Assembly: GCA_964487685.1 (NCBI GenBank)
Contig: CAZASA010000001.1
Span: 2,855-66,854 of the forward strand
Source: an uncultured Planctomycetales bacterium
Lineage (GTDB): Bacteria; Omnitrophota; Gorgyraeia; Zapsychrales; Fredricksoniimonadaceae
Length of the DNA stretch: 64,000 nt
Reading direction: 5' to 3'
The notes under the pieces were generated by a model, which was not told the DNA's origin, searched no databases, and saw only the letters and a list, made by a program, of their open reading frames with translations. A program made the translations under genes and the position numbers. How positions within the stretch are numbered: position 1 is the stretch's first letter; each line of letters opens with the position of its first letter. Below are positions 9,982 through 50,723 of the stretch, piece after piece.

Positions 9982-10930
9982 TGCGCCAGACCTGATCAGT
10001 GTCATTGTCACCAATTACAATCACGCGGCGTTTTTGGACCAGCGCATGCAAAGCCTTTTGGAGCAGACGTATCCTAACCTTGAGATCATTGTCATAGATA
10101 ATTGTTCTACGGATAATAGCAGGGAAGTCCTTGCCAAGTACAGGACTAAGGCCAATATCAAGATCGTGGAAATGCAGGAGAATATCGGGAATATCAATAC
10201 CTCGAATATGGGCGTGACAATGTCCAGGGGCGAATTCTTTATTTTTGCCGAAGCAGATGATTACAGCGCCCCTCAAGAGATCGAACTATTGCACCAGGCG
10301 ATGGCAGGCCATGAAGAGACCGGGGCCGCTTTTTGCCGCAGTTACATGGTTGACGGCCAAGGGAAAATATTTGATGAGGATTTTAATTACAGGGACAGGG
10401 CATTCAAGGAATTTTGTTCAAAAGATACCTTGATCCAAGGGGCCCAAGCCCAACGTTTCTTTTTGTTCTCGTGCATCATCCCTAATTTCAGCGCTGTACT
10501 CTTCAGGCGTAAATATTATGACTTGGTCCAAGGGATGTCGCATCGTTTTAAGACCTGCGCGGATTGGGATTTTTGGTTTAGGATGACAGAACATTGTGAC
10601 CTTTATTATCTGACGACACCGTTGAATTATTTCAGGAGGCATGCTAAAACTACTGGGAATCTTTACGGCATAGAATTGACATTAAAGGAGATCATGACCC
10701 TGTTGTACACACAGGCCCGTCAAACGCCATTGAACTTTTGGGAACAGTTACGCTTTAAAGTCAATTTGGGCGTTATTTGGGGACGTTACAGGAAACCGGC
10801 ACCCGCTATTTGGTGGAAGTGTTTCCCGGCAGTTTGGAGGGAGACCTTAAAATACGATAAATTGAGCGTATTATATTTAACCATTGCCTTCATTAAGAGA
10901 AGCGCTCAACGAAGGTTCAATAAGGCCTAA
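9974..10930 (+). CDS. Glycosyltransferase family 2
   Basis: Motifs ISVIVTNYNHAAFL, IDNCSTDNS and AEADD (DxD-type). Confidence 0.8.
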   Translation: MPDAPDLISVIVTNYNHAAFLDQRMQSLLEQTYPNLEIIVIDNCSTDNSREVLAKYRTKANIKIVEMQENIGNINTSNMGVTMSRGEFFIFAEADDYSAPQEIELLHQAMAGHEETGAAFCRSYMVDGQGKIFDEDFNYRDRAFKEFCSKDTLIQGAQAQRFFLFSCIIPNFSAVLFRRKYYDLVQGMSHRFKTCADWDFWFRMTEHCDLYYLTTPLNYFRRHAKTTGNLYGIELTLKEIMTLLYTQARQTPLNFWEQLRFKVNLGVIWGRYRKPAPAIWWKCFPAVWRETLKYDKLSVLYLTIAFIKRSAQRRFNKA

Positions 10931-26215: not shown

Positions 26216-26240
26216 GGATTCCCGCTTTCGCGGGAATGAC
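26216..26240. repeat. Small palindromic repeat unit, inverted orientation (GG-ATTCCCGC-TTTC-GCGGGAAT-GAC)
   Basis: 8-bp perfect stem (26218-26225 / 26230-26237) with a 4-nt loop. Its translation gives the repeat-derived IPAFAGMT peptide in the spurious extension of the tpiA ORF. Confidence 0.75.
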
Positions 26241-26247
26241 AAATCAT

Positions 26248-39432: not shown

Positions 39433-40635
39433 TTGATCGTTAAGCCAAGAATACGTGGCTATATCTGTACAACTGCGCATCCGGCTGGATGTGCTGCCCA
39501 CGTTGCCCAACAGATTGAACATGTTGTCTCACAAGGCCCCATCTCCAATGGCCCCAAGAAAGTTTTAGTGATCGGGGCGTCTACCGGATACGGCTTGGCC
39601 TCGCGCATCACCGCGGCCTTTGCCTGTGGGGCAGCGACTATCGGTGTATTTTTTGAAAAGTCCGCGGAAGTCGATCGCACGGCTACCGCCGGCTGGTATA
39701 ATACCGCGGCTTTTGAAACTGCCGCCCGTAAAGCACGGCTTTACGCCAAAAGTTTTAATGGGGACGCCTTTTCTGATGATATGCGCCGGGCTGTTTGTAC
39801 AGCTATCAAGAAAGATTTAGGCCAAGTCGATTGCGTGATTTATTCCCTGGCATCTCCCAGACGGGTCGATCCTAAAACAGGTGAAGTTTATAAGTCGATC
39901 CTTAAACCCAAGGGCAAGTCCTATACTAATAAAACCATCGATTTTGAGATCAATAAAGTTTTCGAGGTGACCCTTGAACCGGCCCAGGAAGAAGAGATCC
40001 GCCAGACCATCAAGGTCATGGGCGGCGAAGATTGGCAGCTTTGGATAGACGCACTGATGAAGGACGATCTCCTTGCTCCGGGCGCGCTTACTGTTGCGTA
40101 TTCTTACATCGGTCCTGAGGTGACAACGGCGGTTTACCGTAACGGCACCATCGGTGCTGCCAAGGACCATCTGGAAGCCACGGCCCATCAGTTAGACGAG
40201 CGTTTCAAAAAGTTCGGCGGGAGGGCAATGATTTCAGTTAATAAAGCATTGGTCACGCAAAGCTCATCAGCCATTCCGTATATGCCGCTGTATTTTGTGT
40301 TGCTGATGAAGGTGATGAAAGCCAAAGGCGTGCATGAAGATTGCATCCATCAAATGTACCGTCTTTTTGATTCACGCCTCTTCAACGGGATATCGTTAGA
40401 CCAGATCGTTACAGACAACAAGGGCCGCATACGTATTGATGATTGTGAAATGTGCTGGGATATCCAGCGTCAGGTCGCCAAACTTTGGGAGACCGTATCC
40501 AGTGAAAATATCCTACAAATTGGCGATGTAAAAGGTTATAATAATGACTTCTTAAAGCTTTTCGGTTTTGGTTTACATGGTGTTGATTACGAAGCAGATG
40601 TCCCCACTGTTGTTCCTATCGACGGCCTCTCGTAG
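39433..40635 (+). CDS. fabV: Trans-2-enoyl-CoA/ACP reductase (NADH), FabV/Ter family
   Basis: TTG start. RGYICTTAHPAGC and VLVIGASTGYGLASRI. 400 aa. Confidence 0.85.
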   Translation: MIVKPRIRGYICTTAHPAGCAAHVAQQIEHVVSQGPISNGPKKVLVIGASTGYGLASRITAAFACGAATIGVFFEKSAEVDRTATAGWYNTAAFETAARKARLYAKSFNGDAFSDDMRRAVCTAIKKDLGQVDCVIYSLASPRRVDPKTGEVYKSILKPKGKSYTNKTIDFEINKVFEVTLEPAQEEEIRQTIKVMGGEDWQLWIDALMKDDLLAPGALTVAYSYIGPEVTTAVYRNGTIGAAKDHLEATAHQLDERFKKFGGRAMISVNKALVTQSSSAIPYMPLYFVLLMKVMKAKGVHEDCIHQMYRLFDSRLFNGISLDQIVTDNKGRIRIDDCEMCWDIQRQVAKLWETVSSENILQIGDVKGYNNDFLKLFGFGLHGVDYEADVPTVVPIDGLS

Positions 40636-40780
40636 TGAAAGTGTCGGGACTTTTTTATGGATTTCAATGCTTTAGCTCATCTGAGATCCAATATCTAAAA
40701 TTAAAATTTATACGTATTACCTACTGTGATATGACGGAATAGTATTTATTTTTCCAGAATATCCGATCAATGGAGGAGTA

Positions 40781-41935
40781 ATGATAGACTATTTGCTGAC
40801 TGAAGAACAGATCATGGTCCGCGACATGGCCCGCCAGATCACCGATGAGAAGATCCGTCCTGTTTCGGCTGAATATGACCGGTCAGAAAAATTTCCCTGG
40901 GATATCATGAAGGATATCGCCAAATCAGACCTTTTTGGTGTCTATATAGAAGAGAAGTATGGCGGAATGGGTGGGGGCATTTTGGAATTATGCCTGGTGA
41001 CAGAAGAGTTCTCCAAAGGGTGTGCAGGGATCGCGATCTGTTATTCCGCATCAGCATTGGGGACCTATCCTATTATTTTGGCCGGCAACGACCAACAGAA
41101 GCAAAAGTATCTTCCGGCCATAGCCAAGGGAGAGAAATTGGCCGCCTTCGGCCTCACTGAACCTGCGGCAGGTTCGGACGCCAGTGCTCTTCAAACAACG
41201 GCGGTTAAAAACGGCGATCATTATGTCCTTAACGGGCTTAAACATTTTATCACTAACGGCGGCGATGCGGACATCTATACGGTCGTTGCGATGACCGATA
41301 AATCCAGAGGGGCGAGAGGGGCGAGCATTTTTGTCGTTGAAAAAGGCACGCCGGGCTTCACTTTTGGTAAGAAGGAAGACAAGATGGGGATCCGCGCCTC
41401 TTCCACCAGTGAATTGATCTTTAATGATTGTAAGGTCCCGGTAGAAAATCTTATCGGCAGGGAAGGGATGGGTTTTATCAATGCGATGAGGACCTTTGAT
41501 ATGTCCCGGCCCGGAATTGGCGCTCAAGCCGTTGGTATTGCGCAGGGCGCCTTGGATGAAGCTCTCAAGTATGCCAAACAAAGAAAACAATTTGATAAAC
41601 CCATTTCCAGTTTTCAGGGTATTCAATGGATGCTGGCGGATATGGCCACCGAAACAGAAGCAGCCCGGGCCCTGGTTTATGCCTCAGCAAGGGAAGTGGC
41701 TGCCGGAGTGAAAGATGTCGGTGTGCATTCGGCCATGGCTAAGATGTATGCCTCGGATGTGGCGATGAAGGTCACGACCAACGCGGTGCAGATCTGCGGC
41801 GGCTATGGCTATATGAAAGAATATCCTGTTGAGAAATATATGCGTGATGCCAAGATAACCCAGATCTATGAAGGGACTAATCAGATCCAGCGTAATATCA
41901 TCGGCATGGGTTTGATCAGAGAAAGCTCTAAATGA
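40781..41935 (+). CDS. Short-chain acyl-CoA dehydrogenase (butyryl-CoA dehydrogenase-like)
   Basis: 384 aa. FGLTEPAAGSDA and YEGTNQIQR motifs. GGAGG RBS at 40772-40776. Confidence 0.85.
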   Translation: MIDYLLTEEQIMVRDMARQITDEKIRPVSAEYDRSEKFPWDIMKDIAKSDLFGVYIEEKYGGMGGGILELCLVTEEFSKGCAGIAICYSASALGTYPIILAGNDQQKQKYLPAIAKGEKLAAFGLTEPAAGSDASALQTTAVKNGDHYVLNGLKHFITNGGDADIYTVVAMTDKSRGARGASIFVVEKGTPGFTFGKKEDKMGIRASSTSELIFNDCKVPVENLIGREGMGFINAMRTFDMSRPGIGAQAVGIAQGALDEALKYAKQRKQFDKPISSFQGIQWMLADMATETEAARALVYASAREVAAGVKDVGVHSAMAKMYASDVAMKVTTNAVQICGGYGYMKEYPVEKYMRDAKITQIYEGTNQIQRNIIGMGLIRESSK

Positions 41936-42708
41936 ACATCATTGTCTGCATAAAACAAGTTCCTGATACTAATGATATCAAGATCGATCCTGCCGCCAAG
42001 AGGCTCGTTCGTGAAGGGGTCAAGACCATGATCAACCCCTTTGATATGTATGCTATAGAAGAGGCTTTGCGCCTTAAAGAGAAGCTCGGCGGGAAAGTGA
42101 TAGCCATGACGATGGGGCCAGCTCAGGCAGAATCAGCTTTAAGAGAAGCTATTTCTTTGGGCTGCGATGAAGCCATTCTTTTGAGCGATCTTGCATTTGC
42201 AGGGTCTGATGCCTTGGCCACCAGTTATGCCTTATCCCAAGCGATCAGAAAGATCGGGCAATTTGATATGATCTTTGCCGGGAAACAGTCCCTGGACGGG
42301 GACACAGCCCAAGTGGGCCCTGGGATCGCCGCTATTTTAGATATTCCTCAAATCATTAACGTTAGAAAGATACAAGAGATCAAGGAAGGCCAGATCATTG
42401 CTGAACGCATGACTGAATATGGATATGAAGTTTTGCAAGCACCGCTTCCATGTCTTATGACCGTTGTCAAGGACATCAATATGCCGCGCCTTCCGTCTTT
42501 AAAAGGTAAGATGAAAGCCAAGAGTACTCAGGTCACTGTTTGGAAAGCTGCTGATATTGGCGCTGAGGAGGCCCGCATTGGGTCTAAGGGTTCTGGCACA
42601 GACGTCTGGAAGATCGTGATACCACCGGCCAGACCACAAGGAAAGATTTTTGAAGGTGAAGGAGCTGTTGATCAACTTGTTGATACTCTTAAAGGATTGA
42701 TCAAATGA
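41932..42708 (+). CDS. etfB: Electron transfer flavoprotein beta subunit
   Basis: MNIIVCIKQVPD and GKQSLDGDTAQVGPGIAA. Confidence 0.9.
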   Translation: MNIIVCIKQVPDTNDIKIDPAAKRLVREGVKTMINPFDMYAIEEALRLKEKLGGKVIAMTMGPAQAESALREAISLGCDEAILLSDLAFAGSDALATSYALSQAIRKIGQFDMIFAGKQSLDGDTAQVGPGIAAILDIPQIINVRKIQEIKEGQIIAERMTEYGYEVLQAPLPCLMTVVKDINMPRLPSLKGKMKAKSTQVTVWKAADIGAEEARIGSKGSGTDVWKIVIPPARPQGKIFEGEGAVDQLVDTLKGLIK

Positions 42709-43709
42709 GTGAAATTCTTGAATATAAAGGCGTTTGGGTTTTGGTTGAGCAACGGCGCGGTGTCATCCAACCTGTCACTTACGAATTATTAGGGAAAGCC
42801 AGGGAATTGGCGGATTCGCTTGGGGTCGAGGTGTCTTGCCTGTTGATGGGATTTAAAGTCAAAGACAAAGCCCAGGAATTGATCCATCGCCAAGCGGATA
42901 AAGTTTATGTTGTTGACGATTCCAGGATTGAATATTTGCTCGAAGAGCCCTATACGCGTATAGCCGCTGATTTGATCAACAAGTATCGCCCGGAGATCCT
43001 GCTTTGTCCGGCGACAACGCTCAGCAGATCCTTAGCCGCAAGGCTCGCGGCCAACTTAAATGTAGGCCTTACATCTGATTGCACTGGCCTTGATATTAAT
43101 CCTGAAGACCGCTGCCTCCTGCAGACGAAACCGGCTTTCGGCGGAACTGTCATGACGACGATCATTTCAAAAAACCATCGGCCGCAGATGGCCACGGTCA
43201 GGCAAAAAGCCATGAAAGAGGCTGTTGCTGACCCGCAGTACCAAGGGGAGGTTGAGGTCTTGGAATTGGATGCGTCATTTTTTGCATCAAGGGCCAAGGT
43301 TTTGGAAGTTGTTGATGAGGCTGCGACCAGCATCAATATTTCGGATGCCAATGTGATCGTTTCCGGCGGACGGGGAATGGTAAAGGCCGAGAATTTTAAA
43401 ATGCTTGAAGAACTGGCCAAGATGCTAAATGGTGCGGTTGGCGCCTCTCGAGCCGCGGTTGACGAGCAATGGATCCCTTATTCCCATCAGGTGGGCCAGA
43501 CAGGCAAAACAGTTTGCCCTAAACTTTATATTGCCTGTGGTATTTCCGGCCAGATCCAGCATCTGGTGGGGATGCAGACTTCGGATATTATTATCGCGAT
43601 CAATAAAGACCCGTCCGCTCCGATCTTTAAGATCGCCAATTATGGGATTGTCGGTGATCTTTTTGAAATAGTACCTCAATTGACAAAACGATTGGGGGAC
43701 AAGAGCTGA
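42705..43709 (+). CDS. etfA: Electron transfer flavoprotein alpha subunit
   Basis: VWVLVEQRRG, VSGGRG and GASRAAVDEQW...QVGQTGKTVCPKLYIACGISGQIQH. Confidence 0.9.
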   Translation: MSEILEYKGVWVLVEQRRGVIQPVTYELLGKARELADSLGVEVSCLLMGFKVKDKAQELIHRQADKVYVVDDSRIEYLLEEPYTRIAADLINKYRPEILLCPATTLSRSLAARLAANLNVGLTSDCTGLDINPEDRCLLQTKPAFGGTVMTTIISKNHRPQMATVRQKAMKEAVADPQYQGEVEVLELDASFFASRAKVLEVVDEAATSINISDANVIVSGGRGMVKAENFKMLEELAKMLNGAVGASRAAVDEQWIPYSHQVGQTGKTVCPKLYIACGISGQIQHLVGMQTSDIIIAINKDPSAPIFKIANYGIVGDLFEIVPQLTKRLGDKS

Positions 43710-45352
43710 TGAGTAATGACAATTTGATCGAGACAGATGTTCTGGTTATTGGCGGCGGACCTTCGGGTCTTGCCTTTGCCATTCATTACGCCGACCTAAT
43801 TAAAAAACAAAATCTTCCTTTAAAAGTCATGGTCCTTGAAAAGGGCGCATCAGTGGGCAATCATACCCTTTCAGGGGCTGTGATGAATTTAAAGAATATC
43901 GGAGAGCTTCTGCCGGGCGTTGATCTAAAGACTATCCCATCGTCCACGGAGGTCAAAGAAGAAGATATCCTGTTTTTAACAAAGAAGAATGCTTTTGCCC
44001 TGCCTTTTCATCCCAAGGAAATGTCCAATAAAGGCAATCATATCCTATCATTGGGGGCCTTGGTCCGTTGGCTTGGAGGTATTGCCGAACAAAAGGGTGT
44101 TGAAATATTCGCCGGAGTTGCAGGGCATGAACTGATCTTTGAGAAAGGCAATCTAGTCGGTGTGTTTACAGGGGCCTCCGGGCTCGACCATGAGGGAAAG
44201 CCCAAGTCCAATTACCAGCCTCCCACTGAGGTCAGGGCCAAGATCATTGTCCTGGCTGAAGGCGCCCGCGGCCATTTAACGAAAAAATTGATCGAAGAAT
44301 ATGATCTGGCCAAGGATAAAAATCCACAGGTTTATTCATTGGGGATCAAAGAACTTTGGCAGGTTCCCGAAGGCGCTTTTGGTGAAGGACAAATTATCCA
44401 TACCCTTGGCTATCCTCTAGGTGCCGACCAATTTGGAGGCGGGTTTGTTTATGGTTTAAGCAAGACAGAGGTAGTCATCGGTTTTTGTTCCGGCCTTGAT
44501 TATTCAGATCCCGGCTTTGATCCTCATCGTGCCCTTCAACTATACAAGACACATCCCAGCATTGCCAAGATCATCACTAACGGCAAACTGCTCAAGTATG
44601 GGGCAAAGAACATTCCTGAGGGCGGATTGTATTCTCTGCCACAGCTGTTTGGTAATAATTTTATGATCGTCGGGGATTCTGCGGGTTTTGTTGCCATGCC
44701 CAGTTTAAAAGGGATACATATTGGTATCAAGGCGGCTATGACTGCGGCCCAGGCGGCTGTTGAAGCCATCAAAAAACACGATACATCAAAAGATTCATTG
44801 CGCCTTTATGAAGAATTATTCAAGGAAACACCTGAGTATCGTGAGTTGTACGCTTCCCGGAATTTCCGTCAATGTTTCACTTCTAATTTATATTTCGGTT
44901 TCATCAAGTTCGGTATCAATCAATTGACCGCGGGGCGGGGGATTTCATTAAGCGGTAGATCACCGCTCAAGGCTGATCACCAGCATTGCCGTCCGGCATT
45001 AAAGGGCAATCGTATATTGCCATTTGTTTTTGACAACAAGATAACTTTTGATAAAGAAGCGGATGTGTTTTATTCCGGGACCAAACACGACGAGGAACAA
45101 CCTTGCCATATCCTCATATCAAGTCCAGAAACCTGTGCTATTTGTATCGAGCAATTTGAAGCGCCATGCCAGCATTTTTGTCCTGCCAAGGTTTTTGAAT
45201 TAAGCCAGGACTTTCAAAGCCATAAACGCAAGATCGTTTTACATCCCTCGAATTGCATTCACTGCAAAACATGCGACATCAAAGACCCTTTCCAAAACGT
45301 GACGTGGGTGCCGCCCTATGGTGCCGACGGCCCGCAGTATGACAATATGTAA
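43709..45352 (+). CDS. Electron transfer flavoprotein:quinone oxidoreductase (ETF-QO)
   Basis: VLVIGGGPSGLA FAD motif. C-terminal 4Fe-4S region CPAKVFEL...NCIHCKTCDIKDP...PPYGADGPQY. Confidence 0.85.
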   Translation: MSNDNLIETDVLVIGGGPSGLAFAIHYADLIKKQNLPLKVMVLEKGASVGNHTLSGAVMNLKNIGELLPGVDLKTIPSSTEVKEEDILFLTKKNAFALPFHPKEMSNKGNHILSLGALVRWLGGIAEQKGVEIFAGVAGHELIFEKGNLVGVFTGASGLDHEGKPKSNYQPPTEVRAKIIVLAEGARGHLTKKLIEEYDLAKDKNPQVYSLGIKELWQVPEGAFGEGQIIHTLGYPLGADQFGGGFVYGLSKTEVVIGFCSGLDYSDPGFDPHRALQLYKTHPSIAKIITNGKLLKYGAKNIPEGGLYSLPQLFGNNFMIVGDSAGFVAMPSLKGIHIGIKAAMTAAQAAVEAIKKHDTSKDSLRLYEELFKETPEYRELYASRNFRQCFTSNLYFGFIKFGINQLTAGRGISLSGRSPLKADHQHCRPALKGNRILPFVFDNKITFDKEADVFYSGTKHDEEQPCHILISSPETCAICIEQFEAPCQHFCPAKVFELSQDFQSHKRKIVLHPSNCIHCKTCDIKDPFQNVTWVPPYGADGPQYDNM

Positions 45353-45357
45353 GTTCG

Positions 45358-45481
45358 ACGAGTATTCGGTCCTCAAATATTTAATTCAATGTGCCACGTT
45401 CTTTTAAGGAGCGGGGAGAGGGTTCAAGCACACGGTGCTAACATTTGATGGACAAGTGCCACCGTTCATCGGTTGGCAGCA
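45358..45481 (+). repeat. 124-bp direct repeat, copy A (contains a duplicated fragment of the pilin-like gene 3' end at 45404-45481)
   Basis: Aligned by eye to 46383-46506 at offset 1025. Identical except 45367 C versus 46392 T. Confidence 0.9.
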
Positions 45482-45485
45482 CTAA

Positions 45486-46178
45486 CTAAAGTCGTGACAG
45501 GCACGACTTTTTTGGTCTTCCAATGATCTGAGGAGTAAGAGTACAGCCATATTTTTTTTCAAGACTGGTAATATATTCATTTGAACCAAAAACATATCCT
45601 TTGTTTGTTGCTTGTCGGATGATATCAATTTCTTGGGCGGATTGTTTTTGATTTAAGAATTCTTTCCAATTATCTGCAGTAACATAGGGTCTAATATTTG
45701 ATAAATGGATAATATTATATTCTTTACCCAAGTGAAAATTAGCGCTGGACCAAGGGTAATCCCAGGCATATTTTACTAAATTGGCTCTTACAGGATTGCA
45801 TTCAACATATTTGATAGCTGCAGGAATATGACTACCTTCAAGCAAGCATGAATAGAACCGTTCTTGCCATAAGTGACCATGGATTCCATTTTTCTTATGG
45901 TAATATAAGGAATATTGCTGATGGGCCCGGCAAAAAATTTGCGCTAGTGATTCTTGTCGCTGGGGCTTGATAATAAAGTGAATATGGTTGGTCATCAAAC
46001 AAAATGCATACAGGTCATTGTAATATTTTTTAGCATAATGATCGATAAGTTTTAGATAATAGGCTCGATCTTGTTGATCTTGGAAGACGTTTTGGCGGTA
46101 GTTACCGCGTTGGGTAACATGGTGTAAATGTCCAGGCAGGACAAAACGGGCTTGTCTAGGCATAGTAGTCTCAGTCAA
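45486..46178 (-). CDS. REP-associated tyrosine transposase (IS200-like Y1/HUH family)
   Basis: LPGHLHHVTQRGN, the HUH motif in LMTNHIHFII, and YVECNPVRANLV (catalytic Tyr region). 230 aa. Confidence 0.8.
   Translation of the reverse strand: MTETTMPRQARFVLPGHLHHVTQRGNYRQNVFQDQQDRAYYLKLIDHYAKKYYNDLYAFCLMTNHIHFIIKPQRQESLAQIFCRAHQQYSLYYHKKNGIHGHLWQERFYSCLLEGSHIPAAIKYVECNPVRANLVKYAWDYPWSSANFHLGKEYNIIHLSNIRPYVTADNWKEFLNQKQSAQEIDIIRQATNKGYVFGSNEYITSLEKKYGCTLTPQIIGRPKKSCLSRL
45488..45510. repeat. REP-like hairpin (AAAGTCGTG-ACAGG-CACGACTTT), left copy
   Basis: 9-bp perfect stem. Exact reverse complement of the units at 46297-46319 and 46357-46379. Overlaps the last codons of the transposase. Confidence 0.85.
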
Positions 46179-46274
46179 TTATTTGGGGGAAGTATAAAGA
46201 TATACTACAAACATTGTATTATGAAACTATAGGGGCGAATAAAATTATAAAACAGACTATTTAAATGTCAATCA

Positions 46275-46380
46275 CTGATTTAATGTTGAGAAGCAAAAAG
46301 TCGTGCCTGTCACGACTTTCTTCACGACTTTCTTCTGATTTAATGTTGAGAAGCAAAAAGTCGTGCCTGTCACGACTTTC
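46275..46380 (+). repeat. Two identical 46-bp direct repeats (46275-46320, 46335-46380), each ending in a REP-like hairpin (46297-46319, 46357-46379)
   Basis: CTGATTTAATGTTGAGAAGCAAAAAGTCGTGCCTGTCACGACTTTC occurs twice, separated by TTCACGACTTTCTT, which repeats the hairpin's right arm. Confidence 0.9.
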
Positions 46381-46382
46381 TA

Positions 46383-46506
46383 ACGAGTATTTGGTCCTCA
46401 AATATTTAATTCAATGTGCCACGTTCTTTTAAGGAGCGGGGAGAGGGTTCAAGCACACGGTGCTAACATTTGATGGACAAGTGCCACCGTTCATCGGTTG
46501 GCAGCA
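46383..46506 (+). repeat. 124-bp direct repeat, copy B (overlaps the real 3' end of the pilin-like gene)
   Basis: See copy A. 123 of 124 positions are identical. Confidence 0.9.
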
Positions 46507-46953
46507 AGGGTTGGTCGAAATTCCGTTAATGGAGGTTTCCGTGGGCAGAGAAGTATTTAAAAGCAATAAATAGTGATAGGGAGGGCCATTTCTATACGCT
46601 AAAAGGACCAAATAAGGGATTGGATGCTGGGGGGTAGAGGACATCATCCCAAACTGATAAAAAAAGTCGTTTTCATTTAAATTTAAAGACAGGGTTTTAT
46701 TGATATTAGCAATGCTTTGGTCATCGATGCTACAGGGAGGAGTGTCTGGCTGATATACTGCGAAACTGCAGCCCGTTTTGAAATAGTAATTCTTCTCCGC
46801 AGCGTATATGTTTAATAAACTATTAACGCCTTCCGTGGCTCTTGCCTGTTCAAGGTAATTATAATAATTGGGAAGGAAGATTGTCGCCAAGACCCCTATG
46901 ATGATCATGACAACAAGGACCTCTACCAAGGTAAAACCTTTTTTATTGGACAT
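46429..46953 (-). CDS. Prepilin-type N-terminal cleavage/methylation domain protein (type IV pilin/pseudopilin-like)
   Basis: The ATG at 46953 gives MSNKKGFTLVEVLVVMIIIGVLA. An AAGGGG RBS lies upstream. Cys-rich C-terminus. Confidence 0.8.
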   Translation of the reverse strand: MSNKKGFTLVEVLVVMIIIGVLATIFLPNYYNYLEQARATEGVNSLLNIYAAEKNYYFKTGCSFAVYQPDTPPCSIDDQSIANINKTLSLNLNENDFFYQFGMMSSTPQHPIPYLVLLAYRNGPPYHYLLLLNTSLPTETSINGISTNPCCQPMNGGTCPSNVSTVCLNPLPAP

Positions 46954-47029
46954 ACAGCATTCCCCTTTATTAAGATATAGCACGTTAGTCAGTGGAAATC
47001 AATTCCTAACATAACCAGGAAGGGATAAC

Positions 47030-47356
47030 ATGGTTGAAAAATTTTTTACGCCTAAAGAAGCTAATGAGAGTTTACCCCTTGTAAAGAAAATAGTGGATGA
47101 GATCTTGCTTAATGCCAGGCAGGCTCCCGGGAATGTGGAGCGCATCAAGTTCTTAATGAACCAGCTTGAGGATATGGGTTGTTTTTATAAGGATTGGAAT
47201 TTTGAGATTGGGTTGGTCGATTTTCCGGCCATTATTCACGGACAGCAAGCCCTGCTTTGCTGGCGATCGGATGAACCACAGGTGGAATGGTTCCACGGGT
47301 ATGAAGACGGCTACGCCGGCCGGCGGCGGGTGACGCGGGAGCTCATCTTTTCATGA
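47030..47356 (+). CDS. DUF2203-like small protein
   Basis: FTPKEANESLPLVKKIV ... GLVDFPAIIHGQQALLCWRSDEPQVEWFHGYEDGYAGRR matches my memory of the DUF2203 pattern. Confidence 0.55.
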   Translation: MVEKFFTPKEANESLPLVKKIVDEILLNARQAPGNVERIKFLMNQLEDMGCFYKDWNFEIGLVDFPAIIHGQQALLCWRSDEPQVEWFHGYEDGYAGRRRVTRELIFS

Positions 47357-47913
47357 ACAAAAAACGCTGCAGCTGGTGCACCGAAGATCTTCTTTACATT
47401 GAATATCATGACAAAGAATGGGGCAGGCCTGTCCATGATGACCGTTTATTGTTCGAATTCTTGATCCTGGAAGGCGCGCAGGCCGGTTTAAGCTGGCTTA
47501 CGGTATTAAGAAAAAGAGAGAACTACAGGAAAGCTTTTGACCATTTTGACCCGGCCAAGATCGCCCGTTATAATGATAAAAAAGTCAAAGAGCTTTTAAG
47601 CAATGAAGGCATTATCCGCAACCGCCTGAAGATCGCTTCGGCCGTCAGGAATGCTAAAGCTTTTTTAGACGTGCAGAAAGAGTTCGGCAGTTTTGACAAA
47701 TACATATGGCAATTTGTCGATGGTAAACCTCAGAAGAACCGTATCGCTGACATCAAAGAGCTGCCTGCCACTTCCCCCAGGTCTGATGCTATGAGCCAGG
47801 ACCTTAAAAAAAGGGGATTTAATTTTGTAGGATCCACGATTTGTTACGCCTTCATGCAAGCAGTAGGAATGGTGAACGACCATTTGATCGATTGTCATTC
47901 CTATAAAAGATAA
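47353..47913 (+). CDS. tag: DNA-3-methyladenine glycosylase I
   Basis: CSWC...YHDKEWGRPVHDDRLLFEFLILEGAQAGLSW. Confidence 0.9.
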   Translation: MNKKRCSWCTEDLLYIEYHDKEWGRPVHDDRLLFEFLILEGAQAGLSWLTVLRKRENYRKAFDHFDPAKIARYNDKKVKELLSNEGIIRNRLKIASAVRNAKAFLDVQKEFGSFDKYIWQFVDGKPQKNRIADIKELPATSPRSDAMSQDLKKRGFNFVGSTICYAFMQAVGMVNDHLIDCHSYKR

Positions 47914-47915
47914 CT

Positions 47916-48857
47916 ATGACCAAAGACCATTTACCGGCGGATTTCAAGACCAGATTCAATGAAATTCACCCTGAAAGCCCGGAAAGTATTTTTCAACCCA
48001 GGCAATTCCAGTACTTTCGTATTAACACGCTTAAGATCAGTGTTGATGAGGCCTATCGGGTGTTATCCGAGAGGAACATTGATTTTCAAAAATCTGATTT
48101 TTGTCCTTATGCTGTTAGTGTCACTAAAACAGCAGCCCAGGAACTTTTAAGATCAGACCTTGTCAACGACGGACGTTTGTATGCCCAAGGCTTGGAAAGC
48201 ATGTTACCGGTGATTATCCTGGACCCTCATCCAGACCAGCGTGTATTGGACCTGTGCGCGGCACCCGGGAGTAAAACTTCCCAGATAGCCATGCATATGA
48301 ACAATCAGGGATTTCTCAAAGCCAATGAACCTGTCCGCCAAAGGCTTTATAGGTTAAAGTCAGTACTGCAATTGACCGGTGCTAAAGCCCAAATATCATC
48401 AATGGATGGTCGCCGCTTAAAAGAACATGAAGCCCTTTATGATCGCATTTTAGTGGATGCCCCGTGCAGTTGTGAAGGCCGGTTTGATATAAGTCAGCCC
48501 AAAAGCTTTGCGTATTGGAGTGTACGCAAGGTCAAAGAAATGTCCCATAAACAAAAAGGCCTTTTACTTAATGCCAGCAGATTATTAGCCCCTGGCGGCA
48601 TCCTGGTTTATGCAACCTGCACCTATTCGCCGGAAGAAAATGAAGAAGTGATCGACTGGTTCTTGCGCAAAACCAACGGAAGTTTTGAACTTGGGCCGAT
48701 ACCCTTGAAGGAAATGGGGGTCAAAACCTACCCGACATTGACATCCTGGCATGAACGGACGTATGATACAAGGTTAAGTGCCGCGGTACGTATTTTGCCG
48801 GATGAGCGTATGGAAGGTTTTTTTATTGCTAAATTGATGAATGTCGTCTATAAATGA
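47916..48857 (+). CDS. RsmB/RsmF/NOP2-family RNA m5C methyltransferase
   Basis: DLCAAPGSKT, DAPCSCEG and YATCTYSPEENE motifs. Confidence 0.8.
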   Translation: MTKDHLPADFKTRFNEIHPESPESIFQPRQFQYFRINTLKISVDEAYRVLSERNIDFQKSDFCPYAVSVTKTAAQELLRSDLVNDGRLYAQGLESMLPVIILDPHPDQRVLDLCAAPGSKTSQIAMHMNNQGFLKANEPVRQRLYRLKSVLQLTGAKAQISSMDGRRLKEHEALYDRILVDAPCSCEGRFDISQPKSFAYWSVRKVKEMSHKQKGLLLNASRLLAPGGILVYATCTYSPEENEEVIDWFLRKTNGSFELGPIPLKEMGVKTYPTLTSWHERTYDTRLSAAVRILPDERMEGFFIAKLMNVVYK

Positions 48858-49692
48858 TTGTATGTATATAAGAACAATACTTATATTTTCTTTTATCTTA
48901 GCTTTTGGCCCCAGGGCTTGGGCTCAGGTCCCGCCTGTGGCGGGGCAGGCCGCCGCTTCGAAAGCAGCGGGACAAGCCGCCAAGCCGGATGAAATTACAC
49001 TGGAATTGAATGTCGTTCAAATCATCCTTAACGACGAGCATCGCGGTGGCGTTGATTGGGGGGCCATTGTTTCAGATTTCCATACAGTACCTTTGAAAAA
49101 AGAAAACGACCCCGTCTGGAACGATCAAAAGCACCGTTTGAGTTTCGGCACGGTTTCTGAAGATGATTATACCGTCCTTTTGGATGCGCTGGATATGGCA
49201 GGGGAAATGAGCCAGTTTCCCCATGATCCTGTTAAGGTCATTGCAGGGACGCCTGTCAGCATTAGTTTCCCTAAACAAGATATCCATGTAGAAATTGCTC
49301 TTACCCGTTTAAAATCAGGGGACCTTTCATTACGGGTTGAGCCTAAGATCGCTGTCGTAGCAACAGAAATATGGAACGGTGAGAAAATCCCTGCCTCAGT
49401 GACATTAGTAGCCGGGACCGATACCGCCATTACTAATGATATGACGATTATTATCGGCGGGCTGATGAAAGAAGAGGAGATCAGCCGCAAGCATAAATTC
49501 CCTTTGTTGGGGCAAATCCCTTCACTTGGCGATCTTCCTATGCTGGGGAATTTTCCGATGCTGGGCAAGATACCTATTGTCGGTCTGGTTTTTCGTCATA
49601 ATGGCCGACTGATGAAGAAAACTGAAATTGTCATATTTTTGACCGTACGTGCCAAGGCAGTTGAGGTGCCTGAGGAAGATAGTTCAACATGA
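48841..49692 (+). CDS. Minimal secretin-domain outer-membrane protein (no N0-N3 domains)
   Basis: Signal peptide (ILAFGPRAWAQ). The secretin C-domain starts at ITLELNVVQI...GGVDWG and ends at IIIGGLMKEEE...KFPLLGQIPSLGDLPMLGNFPMLGKIPIVGLVF...EIVIFLTVR. An alternative start is at 48862. Confidence 0.65.
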   Translation: MSSINDCMYIRTILIFSFILAFGPRAWAQVPPVAGQAAASKAAGQAAKPDEITLELNVVQIILNDEHRGGVDWGAIVSDFHTVPLKKENDPVWNDQKHRLSFGTVSEDDYTVLLDALDMAGEMSQFPHDPVKVIAGTPVSISFPKQDIHVEIALTRLKSGDLSLRVEPKIAVVATEIWNGEKIPASVTLVAGTDTAITNDMTIIIGGLMKEEEISRKHKFPLLGQIPSLGDLPMLGNFPMLGKIPIVGLVFRHNGRLMKKTEIVIFLTVRAKAVEVPEEDSST

Positions 49693-50723
49693 TATTCAGG
49701 ATATTGATCTATTTTTTAATGATCTTGGCCCTTCACGGCTGTGCTGGAAGGCCGGTGGTGCCTTCCAACCCCCCGGAGGGAATTCCGCTGGCGGACATTT
49801 GTCAGCGATACCATGTTGCCTGGCAGTGGGATGGTGTCACCCAAGTTGTCTTGATGGAATATAAGGGCAATATATCCAAGGCATTAGTGGGATCTTCGGT
49901 AGTCTTGATCGGCCAGCATCAAATAAATTTAAGCGCGCCCCTGCGCCGTGAGAGCAGCACGATCTATGTCCCGGAAGATTTTGAATCCAAGGTCCTGGCC
50001 CCGTTCGGAATACCTATCGTCGGTCTTTCACCGATCGGGTCTTCCGCACGCGTGCATACGATCGTCCTTGATGCAGGTCATGGCGGCAAGGACCGCGGCA
50101 CCATGTCCCCATACGGGGGAATGGATGAGAAAGAGATCGTCCTGGATGTGGCCAAACGTCTAAGACAACTTTTAGAGAATGCCGGGATCAAGGTCATCAT
50201 GACCCGTGACACGGATGATTTTATCTCCTTACCTGAGCGTACCATTATTGCTTCCCGCAGTAATGCGGACTTGTTTGTGAGTATCCATGTCAATTCCAAC
50301 CAGGACCATGCGGTAAGCGGGTTTCTGGTCTATTATCTCGATGCCATCACCAAAAGAGGTTTGAATGAAGAGCAGCGAAAGGCCAATGAACATATATTCC
50401 TGGAGTCTTTGAGCGCTCAAGATACTAACGCCTTGCTTGGCATTGTCGCCGATATGATGGATTCCAACAAGACCGCGGAGTCGCAAAGGCTGGCAAGGAC
50501 GATCGTCAGGGAAGCGCGAGAGGCCCCGGGGATCAAGGTACGCGGCGATGGCATGCGCCTTTGCAGGTTCTTTGTGGTGCGCAATACCTTGATACCAGCC
50601 GTACTTGTCGAGACTGGGTTTTTGTCCAACCGGCCGGAGCATAACAAATTGGTATCGTCGATATACCGTCAGAAATTAGCCGAGACCATTGCCCGGGGAA
50701 TCCTGGATTATGCCAATGAATGA
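49689..50723 (+). CDS. N-acetylmuramoyl-L-alanine amidase (Amidase_3, AmiC-like) lipoprotein
   Basis: Lipobox LALHGC. Catalytic domain IVLDAGHGGKDRG...VSIHVNS...VLVETGFLSN. Confidence 0.85.
   Translation: MIFRILIYFLMILALHGCAGRPVVPSNPPEGIPLADICQRYHVAWQWDGVTQVVLMEYKGNISKALVGSSVVLIGQHQINLSAPLRRESSTIYVPEDFESKVLAPFGIPIVGLSPIGSSARVHTIVLDAGHGGKDRGTMSPYGGMDEKEIVLDVAKRLRQLLENAGIKVIMTRDTDDFISLPERTIIASRSNADLFVSIHVNSNQDHAVSGFLVYYLDAITKRGLNEEQRKANEHIFLESLSAQDTNALLGIVADMMDSNKTAESQRLARTIVREAREAPGIKVRGDGMRLCRFFVVRNTLIPAVLVETGFLSNRPEHNKLVSSIYRQKLAETIARGILDYANE

Follow-up and report, generated by a model that had tools for sequence, protein, structure and literature searches.

To our knowledge, Y1/HUH transposases of the RAYT-type family do not make target duplications, and for the IS200/IS605-type Y1 enzymes precise excision is standard. 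RAYTs are described as single-copy, vertically inherited genes, which move REPINs but not themselves (PMC5581495). TnpA_REP cleaves between C and T, or between C and A, beside REPs, as well as at distant sites (PMC8266576), and in E. coli circular DNA of the RAYT gene was not found (bioRxiv 10.1101/2024.07.17.603846). The locus described here contrasts with this view, in that the RAYT unit is present or absent in near-identical strains and occupies several loci among relatives, twice lying between the orphan and intact ends of a gene and once forming a closed cycle. The presence of the unit in one strain and its absence from a close relative imply that a kind of gene supposed to be immobile has relocated. 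The features of the locus, within the analysed 64-kb stretch of DNA from an uncultured Omnitrophota bacterium (the window), are as follows.

43709-45352, plus strand: ETF-ubiquinone oxidoreductase (ETF-QO) gene, left flank (Pfam Fer4_ETF_QO, ETFQO_UQ-bd).
45358-45481: repeat copy A, the orphan copy, with a 46-nt intergenic spacer and a promoterless pilin-like gene fragment.
45404-45481, minus strand: orphan pilin-like fragment in copy A, 25 codons and stop.
45457-45478: hairpin TGCCACCG-TTCAT-CGGTTGGCA in copy A, from folding energy.
45482-46382, minus strand: inserted RAYT unit, 901 bp (REP, RAYT gene, promoter, REPs), missing from the sister-strain metagenome contig L001.
45486-46163, minus strand: RAYT-like Y1/HUH transposase gene, 225 aa (Pfam Y1_Tnp, NCBIfam REP_Tyr_transpos).
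45488-45510: terminal REP hairpin at the 3' end of the RAYT gene, 9-bp stem and 5-nt loop.
46244-46271, minus strand: unit promoter, TTGACA-16-TATAAT, matching 12 of 12 sigma-70 consensus positions.
46275-46381: two 47-nt copies of a REP plus 22 nt of adjoining sequence, at 60-nt spacing.
46383-46506: repeat copy B, comprising the 3' end of the intact pilin-like gene and the adjoining flank.
46429-46953, minus strand: pilin-like gene, 174 aa, with an N_methyl prepilin motif and a Cys-rich C-terminus.

The sequence-only reading of this DNA had proposed a near-perfect 124-bp direct repeat, one copy of which is an orphan piece of the pilin-like gene, around a RAYT-like Y1 transposase gene with REP hairpins; each of these proposals holds. 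The two copies are identical at 123 of 124 nt, start 1025 nt apart and leave 901 bp between them, the single mismatch being C at 45367 in copy A versus T at 46392 in copy B, of which the T is common to L001. The repeat is exactly 124 nt long, as the adjacent outer bases are unlike on either side, and is not a multi-copy sequence, its 60-nt core occurring twice in the 64 kb and in none of 100 shuffles. Copy B holds the final 25 codons and stop of the pilin-like gene (46429-46506) plus 46 nt of 3' flank, and keeps that gene intact; translation of the copy A fragment gives the same peptide, CCQPMNGGTCPSNVSTVCLNPLPAP followed by the stop. A role for the orphan as a pilS-like silent pilin cassette was considered and rejected, since its coding part is identical to the expressed copy and so stores no variation. 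Among 5.8 billion proteins the pilin-like protein has no homologue past its N-terminal motif. The ETF-QO gene, whose homologs among 'Candidatus Omnitrophica' MAG proteins are 80% identical, ends 5 nt ahead of copy A.

The RAYT-like ORF is intact, with a Pfam Y1_Tnp match at E 5.7e-14. Its protein scores 69.3 bits against NCBIfam REP_Tyr_transpos (NF047646), below the curated cutoff of 80, and 21 bits against IS200 (cutoff 55), and is thus closer to RAYT than to IS200. The HxH (H60, H62) and Y119 are invariant in nine relatives, as are the surrounding motifs N59-H60-x-H62 and K118-Y119-V-E-x-N-P; the closest mates in the RAYT clustering are P0003 and P0122. Y1_Tnp is the only ORF family match in 45482-46382, where no tyrosine or serine recombinase was found. 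With the Y1 transposase as the sole gene in the 901 bp, a dedicated att system or integrase is not supported.

The REP hairpin AAAGTCGTGCCTGTCACGACTTT is present three times, at 45488-45510 (inverted), 46297-46319 and 46357-46379 (z -5.5), with no further copies in the 64-kb window, and Rfam gave no match in the window. The first of these hairpins encodes the final eight codons of the RAYT-like gene (KKSCLSRL and stop) and is followed by a plus-strand T run, giving it a terminator-like appearance. The 25-nt arms 45488-45512 and 46295-46319 are 100% complementary, such that inverted cognate REPs flank the RAYT gene, a layout that is the same in all relatives. At the other end of the unit a half-REP (46322-46334) separates the REPs at 46297-46319 and 46357-46379, the corresponding end in relatives having a half-REP and one REP; the REP at the copy B junction terminates in its own CTTTCTA arm. 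L004, L002 and L009 have, by eye, the same TTGACA-16-TATAAT motif ahead of their RAYT genes. The GC content of the unit, 36.3%, is the lowest of any 900-bp stretch of the window (mean 45.4%, sd 3.0); as proof that the unit came recently from a foreign source it was rejected, since relatives' contigs made up mainly of the unit (L009-L012) also have 36-40% GC.

With regard to the edges of the repeat, the 3' foot of the copy A hairpin, which is duplicated in copy B at 46482-46503, lies 3 nt short of the right edge. This hairpin may be relevant to the junction: its folding energy as DNA, -7.3 kcal/mol, places it in the top 0.27% of window 28-mers, and in a hairpin scan of the window a comparable hairpin lies 2-4 nt upstream at about 1% of positions. 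At the left edge there is neither a hairpin nor a site for cleavage between C and T or C and A, and no motif is common to both edges. CTAAC is present at both unit junctions (45482-45486 and 46380-46384), but was dropped as a candidate Y1 cleavage motif or 5-bp target duplication, because an unnatural pre-insertion sequence would be implied and relatives have no such repeat.

The empty site that the sequence-only reading had envisaged was found in L001, in which the ETF-QO stop codon is followed by GTTCG, a single 124-bp copy and the pilin-like gene, the unit being absent. The unit is present in the window and missing in L001, so that it is, as judged by alignment of the two alleles, an insertion polymorphism. 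Left of the unit there are 22 mismatches to L001 over 1217 bp, the last being the C/T difference inside copy A; 21 lie in the ETF-QO stretch that L001 covers (window 44265-45352), a flank divergence of 1.9%. Right of the unit, by contrast, copy B and the next 766 bp have 0 mismatches over 890 bp. Under a uniform rate, and with L001 as the one comparison contig, the chance that all 22 mismatches fall left of the unit is 6e-6. This asymmetry, from one SNP and 22 versus 0 mismatches to L001 only, is suggestive of flank haplotypes that differ in parentage, although it could stem from unrelated recombination tracts inside ETF-QO, and the lone C/T difference is also compatible with mutation after duplication in situ.

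Two parental haplotypes, one on each side, would also be expected if two strains had independently received the unit at points 124 bp apart and a homologous crossover had then occurred inside it. That history calls for two rare events, no more than 124 bp apart and with the unit in one orientation both times, of which one would disrupt the pilin gene; the targets have no common motif, and neither single-insertion allele was seen; we consider it extremely improbable.

The same two insertions, if carried by different strains and merged by the assembler, or an empty chromosome merged with a free circle or another locus that carries unit and repeat, could instead make the arrangement an assembly artefact. 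A circle plus an empty site yields the same low-k graph, the empty-site haplotype co-occurs, the independent contig L018 stops right before the C/T site, as it should if the ETF-QO context is followed by both variants, and L012 (below) shows that such closed cycles exist. Owing to the SNP, however, the copies match exactly over no more than 114 nt, and in the contig C is tied to the unit and T to the pilin gene, a link which a k-mer-faithful assembler with k above ~116 would presumably not invent. An independent k=31 assembly has its breaks precisely at the SNP (L018) and at the edge of the repeat (L017); L017 begins within the repeat, exactly 30 nt (k-1) from its right end, such that both continuations are in the reads. 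In L011 the order of orphan, unit and gene recurs with non-identical copies, where no collapse is possible. Because the SNP labels the copies and the k=31 assembly breaks at the SNP and the repeat edge, an artefact is unlikely, and overall we assign it little probability.

The unit is 77-86% identical in nucleotide sequence to eight other RAYT loci, the nearest DNA relative being at 86%. This similarity is limited to 45487-46319/46334, i.e. to the REP edges, with short REP-only matches reaching 46386. The RAYT relatives, at 74-89% amino acid identity, are at a TP_methylase locus, a pilus-cluster locus and a PhdYeFM/PIN locus. In L002-L009 and L019 the unit is adjacent to TP_methylase, and in L013 and L014 it lies at the stop codon of a coiled-coil gene belonging to a type IV pilus cluster, in both settings without long repeats; the relatives' occupation of other loci without such repeats implies that the window site is derived. 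Relatives have extra REPs within 5 kb, including a REPIN doublet in L002 at 10319-10378. The exact window RAYT protein was found in one contig only, and a JGI metagenome scan gave three loci, two of them already known. Neither RAYT peptide patterns nor a DNA pattern for the RAYT 3' end and REP found anything in species-representative genomes; viral contigs contained no related RAYT loci, and in plasmids RAYT relatives were no closer than 34% identity. Vertical inheritance at a fixed locus does not describe these data, given the polymorphism relative to L001 and the several loci in relatives. The best reading of the 901-bp segment is as a self-contained, REP-bounded RAYT unit that arrived secondarily at the ETF-QO/pilin boundary.

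Two contigs from relatives bear on how such a unit arrives. In L011 the unit lies between orphan and intact 3' ends of the coiled-coil gene; the contig start cuts the repeat, so that the orphan is visible for 53 nt and the repeat is at least that long. The L011 copies differ at 8 of 53 nt, with seven differences synonymous and one non-synonymous (P = 4e-4 under neutrality), and at seven of the eight differing sites the orphan shares the state of the L013 ortholog. By this pattern of substitution the orphan is a piece that recently belonged to another functional allele, from which it follows that no target-site duplication occurred at L011. Old duplication in situ followed by decay was ruled out for L011 by the 7:1 ratio of synonymous to non-synonymous changes and the near absence of orphan-specific changes. 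The visible L011 copies are 85% identical, too low for a RecA crossover, making a plain Campbell crossover unlikely there. The second contig, L012, is a closed 973-bp cycle of an 828-nt unit plus about 149 nt of flank, which could be a circle or a tandem array. In L011 and L012 two different points of the gene are joined to the same nucleotide at the unit edge, and its reuse points to a sequence-defined end. The flank segment is not of constant length: it measures 124 nt in the window and about 149 nt in L012, and in L011 it spans 53 nt or more. The hairpin beside the window junction, though strong there, has no counterpart where the unit is joined in L011 and L012; the idea that a surrogate hairpin generally governs the non-homologous joint was therefore dropped, and the hairpin stands as a local feature of the window.

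These parallels weigh on three further explanations, the first being a replicative template switch in situ (MMBIR-like), whereby the nascent strand copies the unit at its home locus between stalling REP hairpins and returns 124 nt behind its departure. A single event in one genome would then give both the insertion and the flanking duplication; the unit boundaries are at hairpins able to stall polymerases, a strong hairpin adjoins the return or departure point, the copies are identical at 123 of 124 positions, and CTAAC at 45482-45486 and 46380-46384 is a possible microhomology. We nevertheless regard this explanation as rather unlikely. The donor copy of the unit is not visible (nearest DNA relative, 86%), the asymmetry of the flank haplotypes is not predicted, and an orphan from a different functional allele, as in L011, is impossible for an in-situ event. 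L011 likewise argues against duplication-mediated capture in situ, which may nonetheless have occurred at the window itself.

The second explanation is a tandem duplication of unit (U) and flank (R) between the ETF-QO gene (E) and the pilin gene (P), after which the Y1 enzyme would precisely excise the first unit, i.e. E-U-R-P to E-U-R-U-R-P to E-R-U-R-P. The L012 cycle could equally be a tandem array or a circle, the excision would be of the precise kind that is standard for IS200/IS605-type Y1 enzymes, and a local duplication of REP plus flank is present at the upstream end of the unit (46275-46381). Three steps are required, however, and neither the foreign L011 allele nor the flank asymmetry is explained; for the window locus the tandem form and the E-U junction were not seen, the independent contig L018 passing through GTTCG to ACGAG with no branch. 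We consider this series of events distinctly unlikely.

Third, the repeat could be a true long target duplication, the RAYT joining inverted REP ends to nicks staggered by 124 nt on opposite strands, with gap repair duplicating the interval. In keeping with this, the same REP is at the 5' end of each strand, a REPIN-like symmetry, and one nick would lie 3 nt from a hairpin foot, in a geometry like that at the other junction, where the REP is followed by CTA and the cut. That the Y1/HUH family makes no target duplications is, however, established knowledge (background in PMC8266576). Moreover, the repeat lengths vary (124; at least 53 in L011; about 149 in L012), the L011 copies are different alleles, the adjacency of REP and stop codon at the coiled-coil gene recurs in L013 and L014, both without an orphan, and at the left edge of the repeat a hairpin and a cleavable dinucleotide are both lacking. 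A long target duplication is thus very unlikely, and the earlier view that the repeat is not a canonical transposon footprint was borne out by the varying lengths and by the different functional alleles in L011.

Rather than a transposon footprint, the 124-bp repeat looks like the scar of homology-assisted recombination, through which the unit and its flank would have entered an empty allele, an explanation that we prefer tentatively, at somewhat less than an even chance. In this scheme a donor DNA molecule would carry the unit beside its own copy of the 124-bp segment, either as a circle of unit plus flank or as linear DNA of a strain in which the unit had simply been inserted straight after the ETF-QO stop codon. 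The predicted signature of the latter donor allele is GTTCG followed directly by CTAACTAAAGTCG (which begins CTAACT), and that of an insertion inside the pilin gene is CTTTCTA followed directly by AGGGTTGG. The donor would recombine with a chromosome lacking the unit, with one side resolved via homology in or beyond the 124 bp; at the other junction (45481/45482) the far REP edge would be joined to a point that lies 124 bp into the region of homology and 3 nt beyond the strong hairpin, a joint probably made when the RAYT cleaved at the REP foot and transferred the strand. The product would have the observed order of orphan fragment, unit and intact pilin gene. The proposal in the sequence-only reading of recombination between element-borne and chromosomal copies is the best fit to the L011 alleles, the L012 cycle and the flank asymmetry in the window, although its term att-type stands only as an analogy of outcome. 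It is possible, but unlikely, that the RAYT gene is the cargo of a still-active REP-bounded module, which leaves as a circle with a variable piece of neighbouring gene, the captured piece serving as a homology 'address' for the same site in other strains and species; the element would then be made by a transposase, delivered by recombination, and would restore its target gene.

If confirmed, homology-assisted entry would reveal how a RAYT gene can change its place and pass from one lineage to another, and would provide a concrete substrate for tests of RAYT cleavage and joining, i.e. a REP edge joined to a hairpin-adjacent site. With respect to metagenome assemblies, long repeats that flank Y1 elements need not be artefacts or target duplications, but can be scars of recombination.

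Comparison with REPtrons of the E. coli yafM type (Nunvar 2010, Bertels & Rainey 2011, Ton-Hoang 2012, PMC8266576, PMC5581495) reveals several shared features: the enzyme is of the Y1/HUH kind and has both the HUH motif and the catalytic Tyr, the gene is enclosed by one REP hairpin in inverted copies, and relatives have REPIN doublets nearby and a conserved locus for the unit. The window protein differs in being longer (225 aa) and under the NCBIfam RAYT cutoff (69 vs 80 bits), and the window gene in having its own 3' end encoded by a REP, with no dispersed REPs in the 64 kb, and in being present or absent between near-identical strains and at no fewer than four loci among relatives. The IS200/IS605 elements that move by 'peel and paste' (IS608, ISDra2) share with the unit the transposase superfamily, hairpin-defined ends, the lack of a short target duplication and an expected circular intermediate. 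Their two subterminal hairpins, however, are unlike, and they insert without leaving a repeat, on the 3' side of a fixed tetra- or pentanucleotide. The window unit, present in one copy in the 64-kb window, instead has the same hairpin in inverted orientation at its two ends and is flanked by target DNA repeated over 124 bp. Insertion of the IS200/IS605 type, without duplication at a fixed short target, is thus not what the window unit displays; nor do the varied lengths and the L011 alleles agree with the fixed-length, single-target origin of a transposon target-site duplication.

Campbell-type integration of phages and islands, via attP/attB identity segments in tRNA or protein genes, has the same outcome, the repeat being the shared segment. 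As there, an orphan 3' fragment is on one side and the restored gene on the other, the repeats correspond to the 3' end of the target gene, the empty site has one copy, and a one-copy circle is possible. The window differs in lacking a tyrosine or serine integrase and a conserved att core, in a repeat length that varies between loci, and in that recombination is presumably general (homologous), combined with one REP-edge joint. In this regard, homology-facilitated illegitimate recombination in natural transformation reportedly combines a homologous anchor with a nearby non-homologous joint, and it can leave short target duplications or deletions. Its likeness to the present case lies in two sides with different parents, as in L011; we know of no description of it with a transposase-defined DNA end, and the exact REP edge is here reused in independent events. 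The transduction of flanks by HUH rolling-circle elements (one-ended transposition of IS91/ISCR, Helitrons) likewise involves an HUH enzyme, a fixed end and a variable end in neighbouring DNA, such that the element takes part of a neighbouring gene along with it. Those elements employ Y2 or Rep-helicase enzymes and have a defined ori/ter polarity, whereas with the RAYT unit either end can be fixed and the captured piece lands beside its cognate copy.

The direct repeat at the window locus (45358-45481 and 46383-46506) is exactly 124 nt long with a single mismatch (45367 C versus 46392 T), and the adjoining bases differ on both sides, so that the 123/124 identity proposed in the sequence-only reading is borne out, as is the description of the intervening 901 bp as a segment with a Y1/HUH transposase gene and hairpins, of which there are three REP copies. 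Translation of both copies yields the same peptide, consistent with the earlier view that copy B (right) comprises the end of the pilin gene plus its 46-bp flank and that copy A (left) is an orphan, i.e. a 3'-end fragment lacking the rest of the gene. A multi-copy repeat, which had been raised as a concern, is not what was found; the 60-nt core occurs at these two positions only in the 64 kb, and in none of 100 shuffles. The features of the locus, the ETF-QO gene on its left ending at 45352, are as follows.

45358-45481, no strand: repeat copy A, with C at 45367; encodes the pilin-end peptide without the rest of the gene
45482-46382, minus strand: inserted unit, 901 bp, one real gene
45486-46163, minus strand: transposase gene, 225 aa (Pfam Y1_Tnp, E 5.7e-14)
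45488-45510, no strand: REP copy, encoding the last eight transposase residues (KKSCLSRL*)
46271-46244, minus strand: predicted promoter of the transposase gene, perfect TTGACA-16-TATAAT (motif match)
46275-46381, no strand: two copies of a 47-nt block (REP plus 22 adjoining nt) at 60-nt spacing, with a half-REP (46322-46334) between them
46297-46319 and 46357-46379, no strand: two REP copies, inverted relative to 45488-45510 (hairpin match)
46383-46506, no strand: repeat copy B, with T at 46392; last 25 codons and stop of the prepilin-type gene plus 46 nt of its 3' flank
46429-46953, minus strand: prepilin-type (pilin-like) gene, its 3' end inside copy B

Among 5.8 billion proteins, no homolog of the pilin-like protein was found beyond its N-terminal methylation motif; a DUF2203 protein (47030-47356) and a secretin-like protein (48841-49692) are encoded nearby. 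Nearly all ORFs of at least 150 aa in 20-45352, from the window start to the end of ETF-QO, lie on the plus strand, and the pilin-like and RAYT genes are the first clear minus-strand genes of the window, which places the insertion at a point of convergent transcription.

The HxH motif of the transposase and the tyrosine of KYVExNP are invariant in nine relatives. The hairpins bounding the unit belong to one family, AAAGTCGTG-N5-CACGACTTT, in which a stem of 9 bp carries a loop of 5 nt (z -5.5 when folded as DNA); no further copies occur in the window even with three mismatches allowed. By its sequence, the REP at 45488-45510 resembles a terminator that would act on transcription entering on the plus strand. 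At the opposite edge, relatives at L009 and L019 have only a half-REP and one REP, and 46275-46381 is a small-scale duplication of REP plus flank. At 36.3%, the GC content of the unit is below that of any other 900-bp stretch of the window (mean 45.4%, sd 3.0). The KKSCLSRL* terminus is encoded by the hairpin (45486-45512 in the window) in all the relatives L002, L004, L009, L011, L013, L014 and L019, and the relatives' REP arms also supply or abut stop codons of neighbouring genes (TAA within the AAA/TTT arms). A second perfect palindrome, GGATTCCCGC-TTTC-GCGGGAATGAC, is present as a single copy in the window (26216-26241, just upstream of ATG 26238) and is identical at 26/26 positions in L019 (3245-3270), where it is intergenic, by the TP_methylase gene (GCA_041643115.1); it may represent a second REP-like family common to these Omnitrophota.

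The empty site sought on the basis of the sequence-only reading was found in a 1,983-bp metagenome contig (L001; ENA ERZ27245399), which encodes the exact pilin protein and runs from the ETF-QO stop through GTTCG and one 124-bp copy into the pilin gene. The left 1,217 bp of the comparison with the window contain 22 mismatches, the last being the C/T site in copy A, whereas the 890 bp from copy B rightwards contain none; with this one alternative haplotype, a uniform rate would place every difference on the left with a probability of 6e-6. Judged by these differences, L001 is from a strain other than that of the window. It carries T at the polymorphic site in ETF-QO context, a combination never seen in the window, and so is not a collapsed window allele. 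The SNPs cluster inside ETF-QO, with 10 within 76 bp (44776-44851) and 7 within 76 bp (45184-45259), as is usual for tracts imported by recombination and not for divergence at a clock-like pace.

In an independent assembly (Logan, SRR8464963, k=31) the window strain is present as two contigs, one (L018) matching 39709-45366 with no mismatch and stopping one base short of the C/T site, the other (L017) corresponding to 46477-50234 and beginning within the repeat, exactly 30 nt (k-1) from its right end. Such breaks are expected if the C and T variants both follow ETF-QO and if the pilin body and the unit both follow the repeat end. That the filled allele is an assembly artefact appears improbable, because the SNP shortens the exact repeat to 114 nt and the contig ties C to the unit and T to the pilin gene, a linkage which, we infer, a circle together with an empty chromosome would not give a large-k assembler.

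The window transposase (P0121) occurs on one 70.8-kb contig, present in NCBI, JGI and ENA; its closest relatives share 74-89% protein identity and the same REP core. In one group, L002-L009 and L019, the unit is flanked by a Cys-rich gene and a TP_methylase gene, with glmS and L27 close by; L013 and L014 have it within a type IV pilus cluster, where a REP directly borders a coiled-coil gene's stop codon; and in two more contigs it adjoins a PhdYeFM/PIN pair. BLAST similarity between the window and all these loci is limited to 45487-46319/46334, besides short REP-only matches, and since it ends at the REPs, the inherited or moved unit is exactly REP to REP. No long flanking repeat was found at the loci checked (L002, L004, L009, L013 and L014). 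Close to the gene, the relatives have further REPs as well as a REPIN doublet, which identifies the system as a RAYT/REP one, belonging to a divergent Omnitrophota group; the ETF-QO protein is 80% identical to 'Candidatus Omnitrophica' MAG proteins.

At L011, whose transposase (P0002) is 87% identical to that of the window, an orphan 3' fragment, the unit and an intact coiled-coil gene follow one another, with a repeat of at least 53 nt at 85% identity (1-53 versus 902-954). The orphan differs from the resident gene at eight sites, seven synonymous and one a conservative Val/Ile change, in gene frame (P 4e-4 under neutrality), and at 7/8 of these shares the state of the L013 ortholog. It has almost no random changes of its own, as against the many expected of a pseudogene copy made in place, which implies that it was recently part of another functional allele. 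On this comparison, the orphan is a piece of a functional allele from another lineage, with DNA of two lineages joined and the unit between them; both target-site duplication and in-situ duplication with decay are thereby ruled out at L011. On the intact side, REP and stop codon adjoin as they do in L013 and L014, so this arrangement predates the orphan. For the window site, a true staggered cut of 124 nt is about as improbable as an artefact, given that repeat lengths vary, that the L011 orphan is foreign and that the adjacency at the coiled-coil gene is old. An in-situ template switch, with the unit copied between its two hairpins and a return 124 nt back, would account for the hairpins and the near-identity of the repeat copies, but is unlikely in view of L011, the flank asymmetry and the lack of a visible donor copy.

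The L012 unit is that of L011 but for three SNPs, and another point of the coiled-coil gene, 149 nt from the REP, is joined there to the same unit-edge nucleotide as in L011. The two ends of L012 (1-1003; Logan ERR14884522) share exactly 30 nt (k-1), so that the contig closes into a 973-bp cycle in which the 828-nt RAYT unit is accompanied by 149 nt from the 3' end of the neighbouring gene; this self-closure indicates either a circle or a tandem array in which unit and flank alternate. A route in which unit and flank were first duplicated in tandem and the first unit was then precisely excised accords with L012 and employs known Y1 reactions only, but requires three steps, and we consider it less likely still than a template switch; two insertions plus a crossover would be the most improbable route.

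Because of the L011 analogy and the flank asymmetry relative to L001, we tentatively favour homology-assisted entry, a family of models with circular or linear delivery, at somewhat below an even chance. The earlier proposal, recombination of an element-borne with the chromosomal copy in an att-type manner, is thus retained as to entry, as the best-fitting reading, but not as to an att system, the unit being without a recombinase and hence not an integrase/att element. In homology-assisted entry, a donor molecule carrying the unit beside its own 124-bp segment would have met a chromosome without the unit; one side would have been resolved via homology in or beyond that segment, and the other would be a non-homologous joint at 45481/45482, where the unit's far REP edge meets the homologous region 124 bp in. 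Either a circle or a linear molecule may have served as donor, the former integrating as in the Campbell model, the latter through one homologous join and one illegitimate one. At copy B the junction coincides exactly with the CTTTCTA edge that belongs to the REP itself, as it would in a simple insertion right after the ETF-QO stop. The joint at 45481/45482 lies 3 nt beyond the foot of a hairpin of -7.3 kcal/mol (5-nt loop; top 0.27% of window 28-mers), the same geometry as at the REP-CTA edge of the other junction. TnpA_REP enzymes cleave between C and T or C and A by REPs and at some distant sites, and catalyse strand transfer (PMC8266576), making a RAYT-made joint plausible.

The insertion polymorphism, the second locus (L011) and the L012 cycle offer genuine clues to the way in which RAYT genes relocate, drawn from metagenome contigs and, as to mechanism, inferred. 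IS200/IS605-style insertions leave no repeat and use a fixed target, and the window unit is thus not one of them; the outcome at the window site mimics that of integrase/att elements. The window transposase scores 69 bits against NCBIfam REP_Tyr_transpos, below the curated RAYT cutoff of 80, and only 21 bits against IS200. In enzyme and hairpins the unit resembles a REPtron, but it fails the description of RAYTs as single-copy, fixed-locus and vertically inherited (PMC5581495). In mechanism it comes closest to Campbell integration, to homology-facilitated illegitimate recombination and to the transduction of flanking DNA by other HUH elements.
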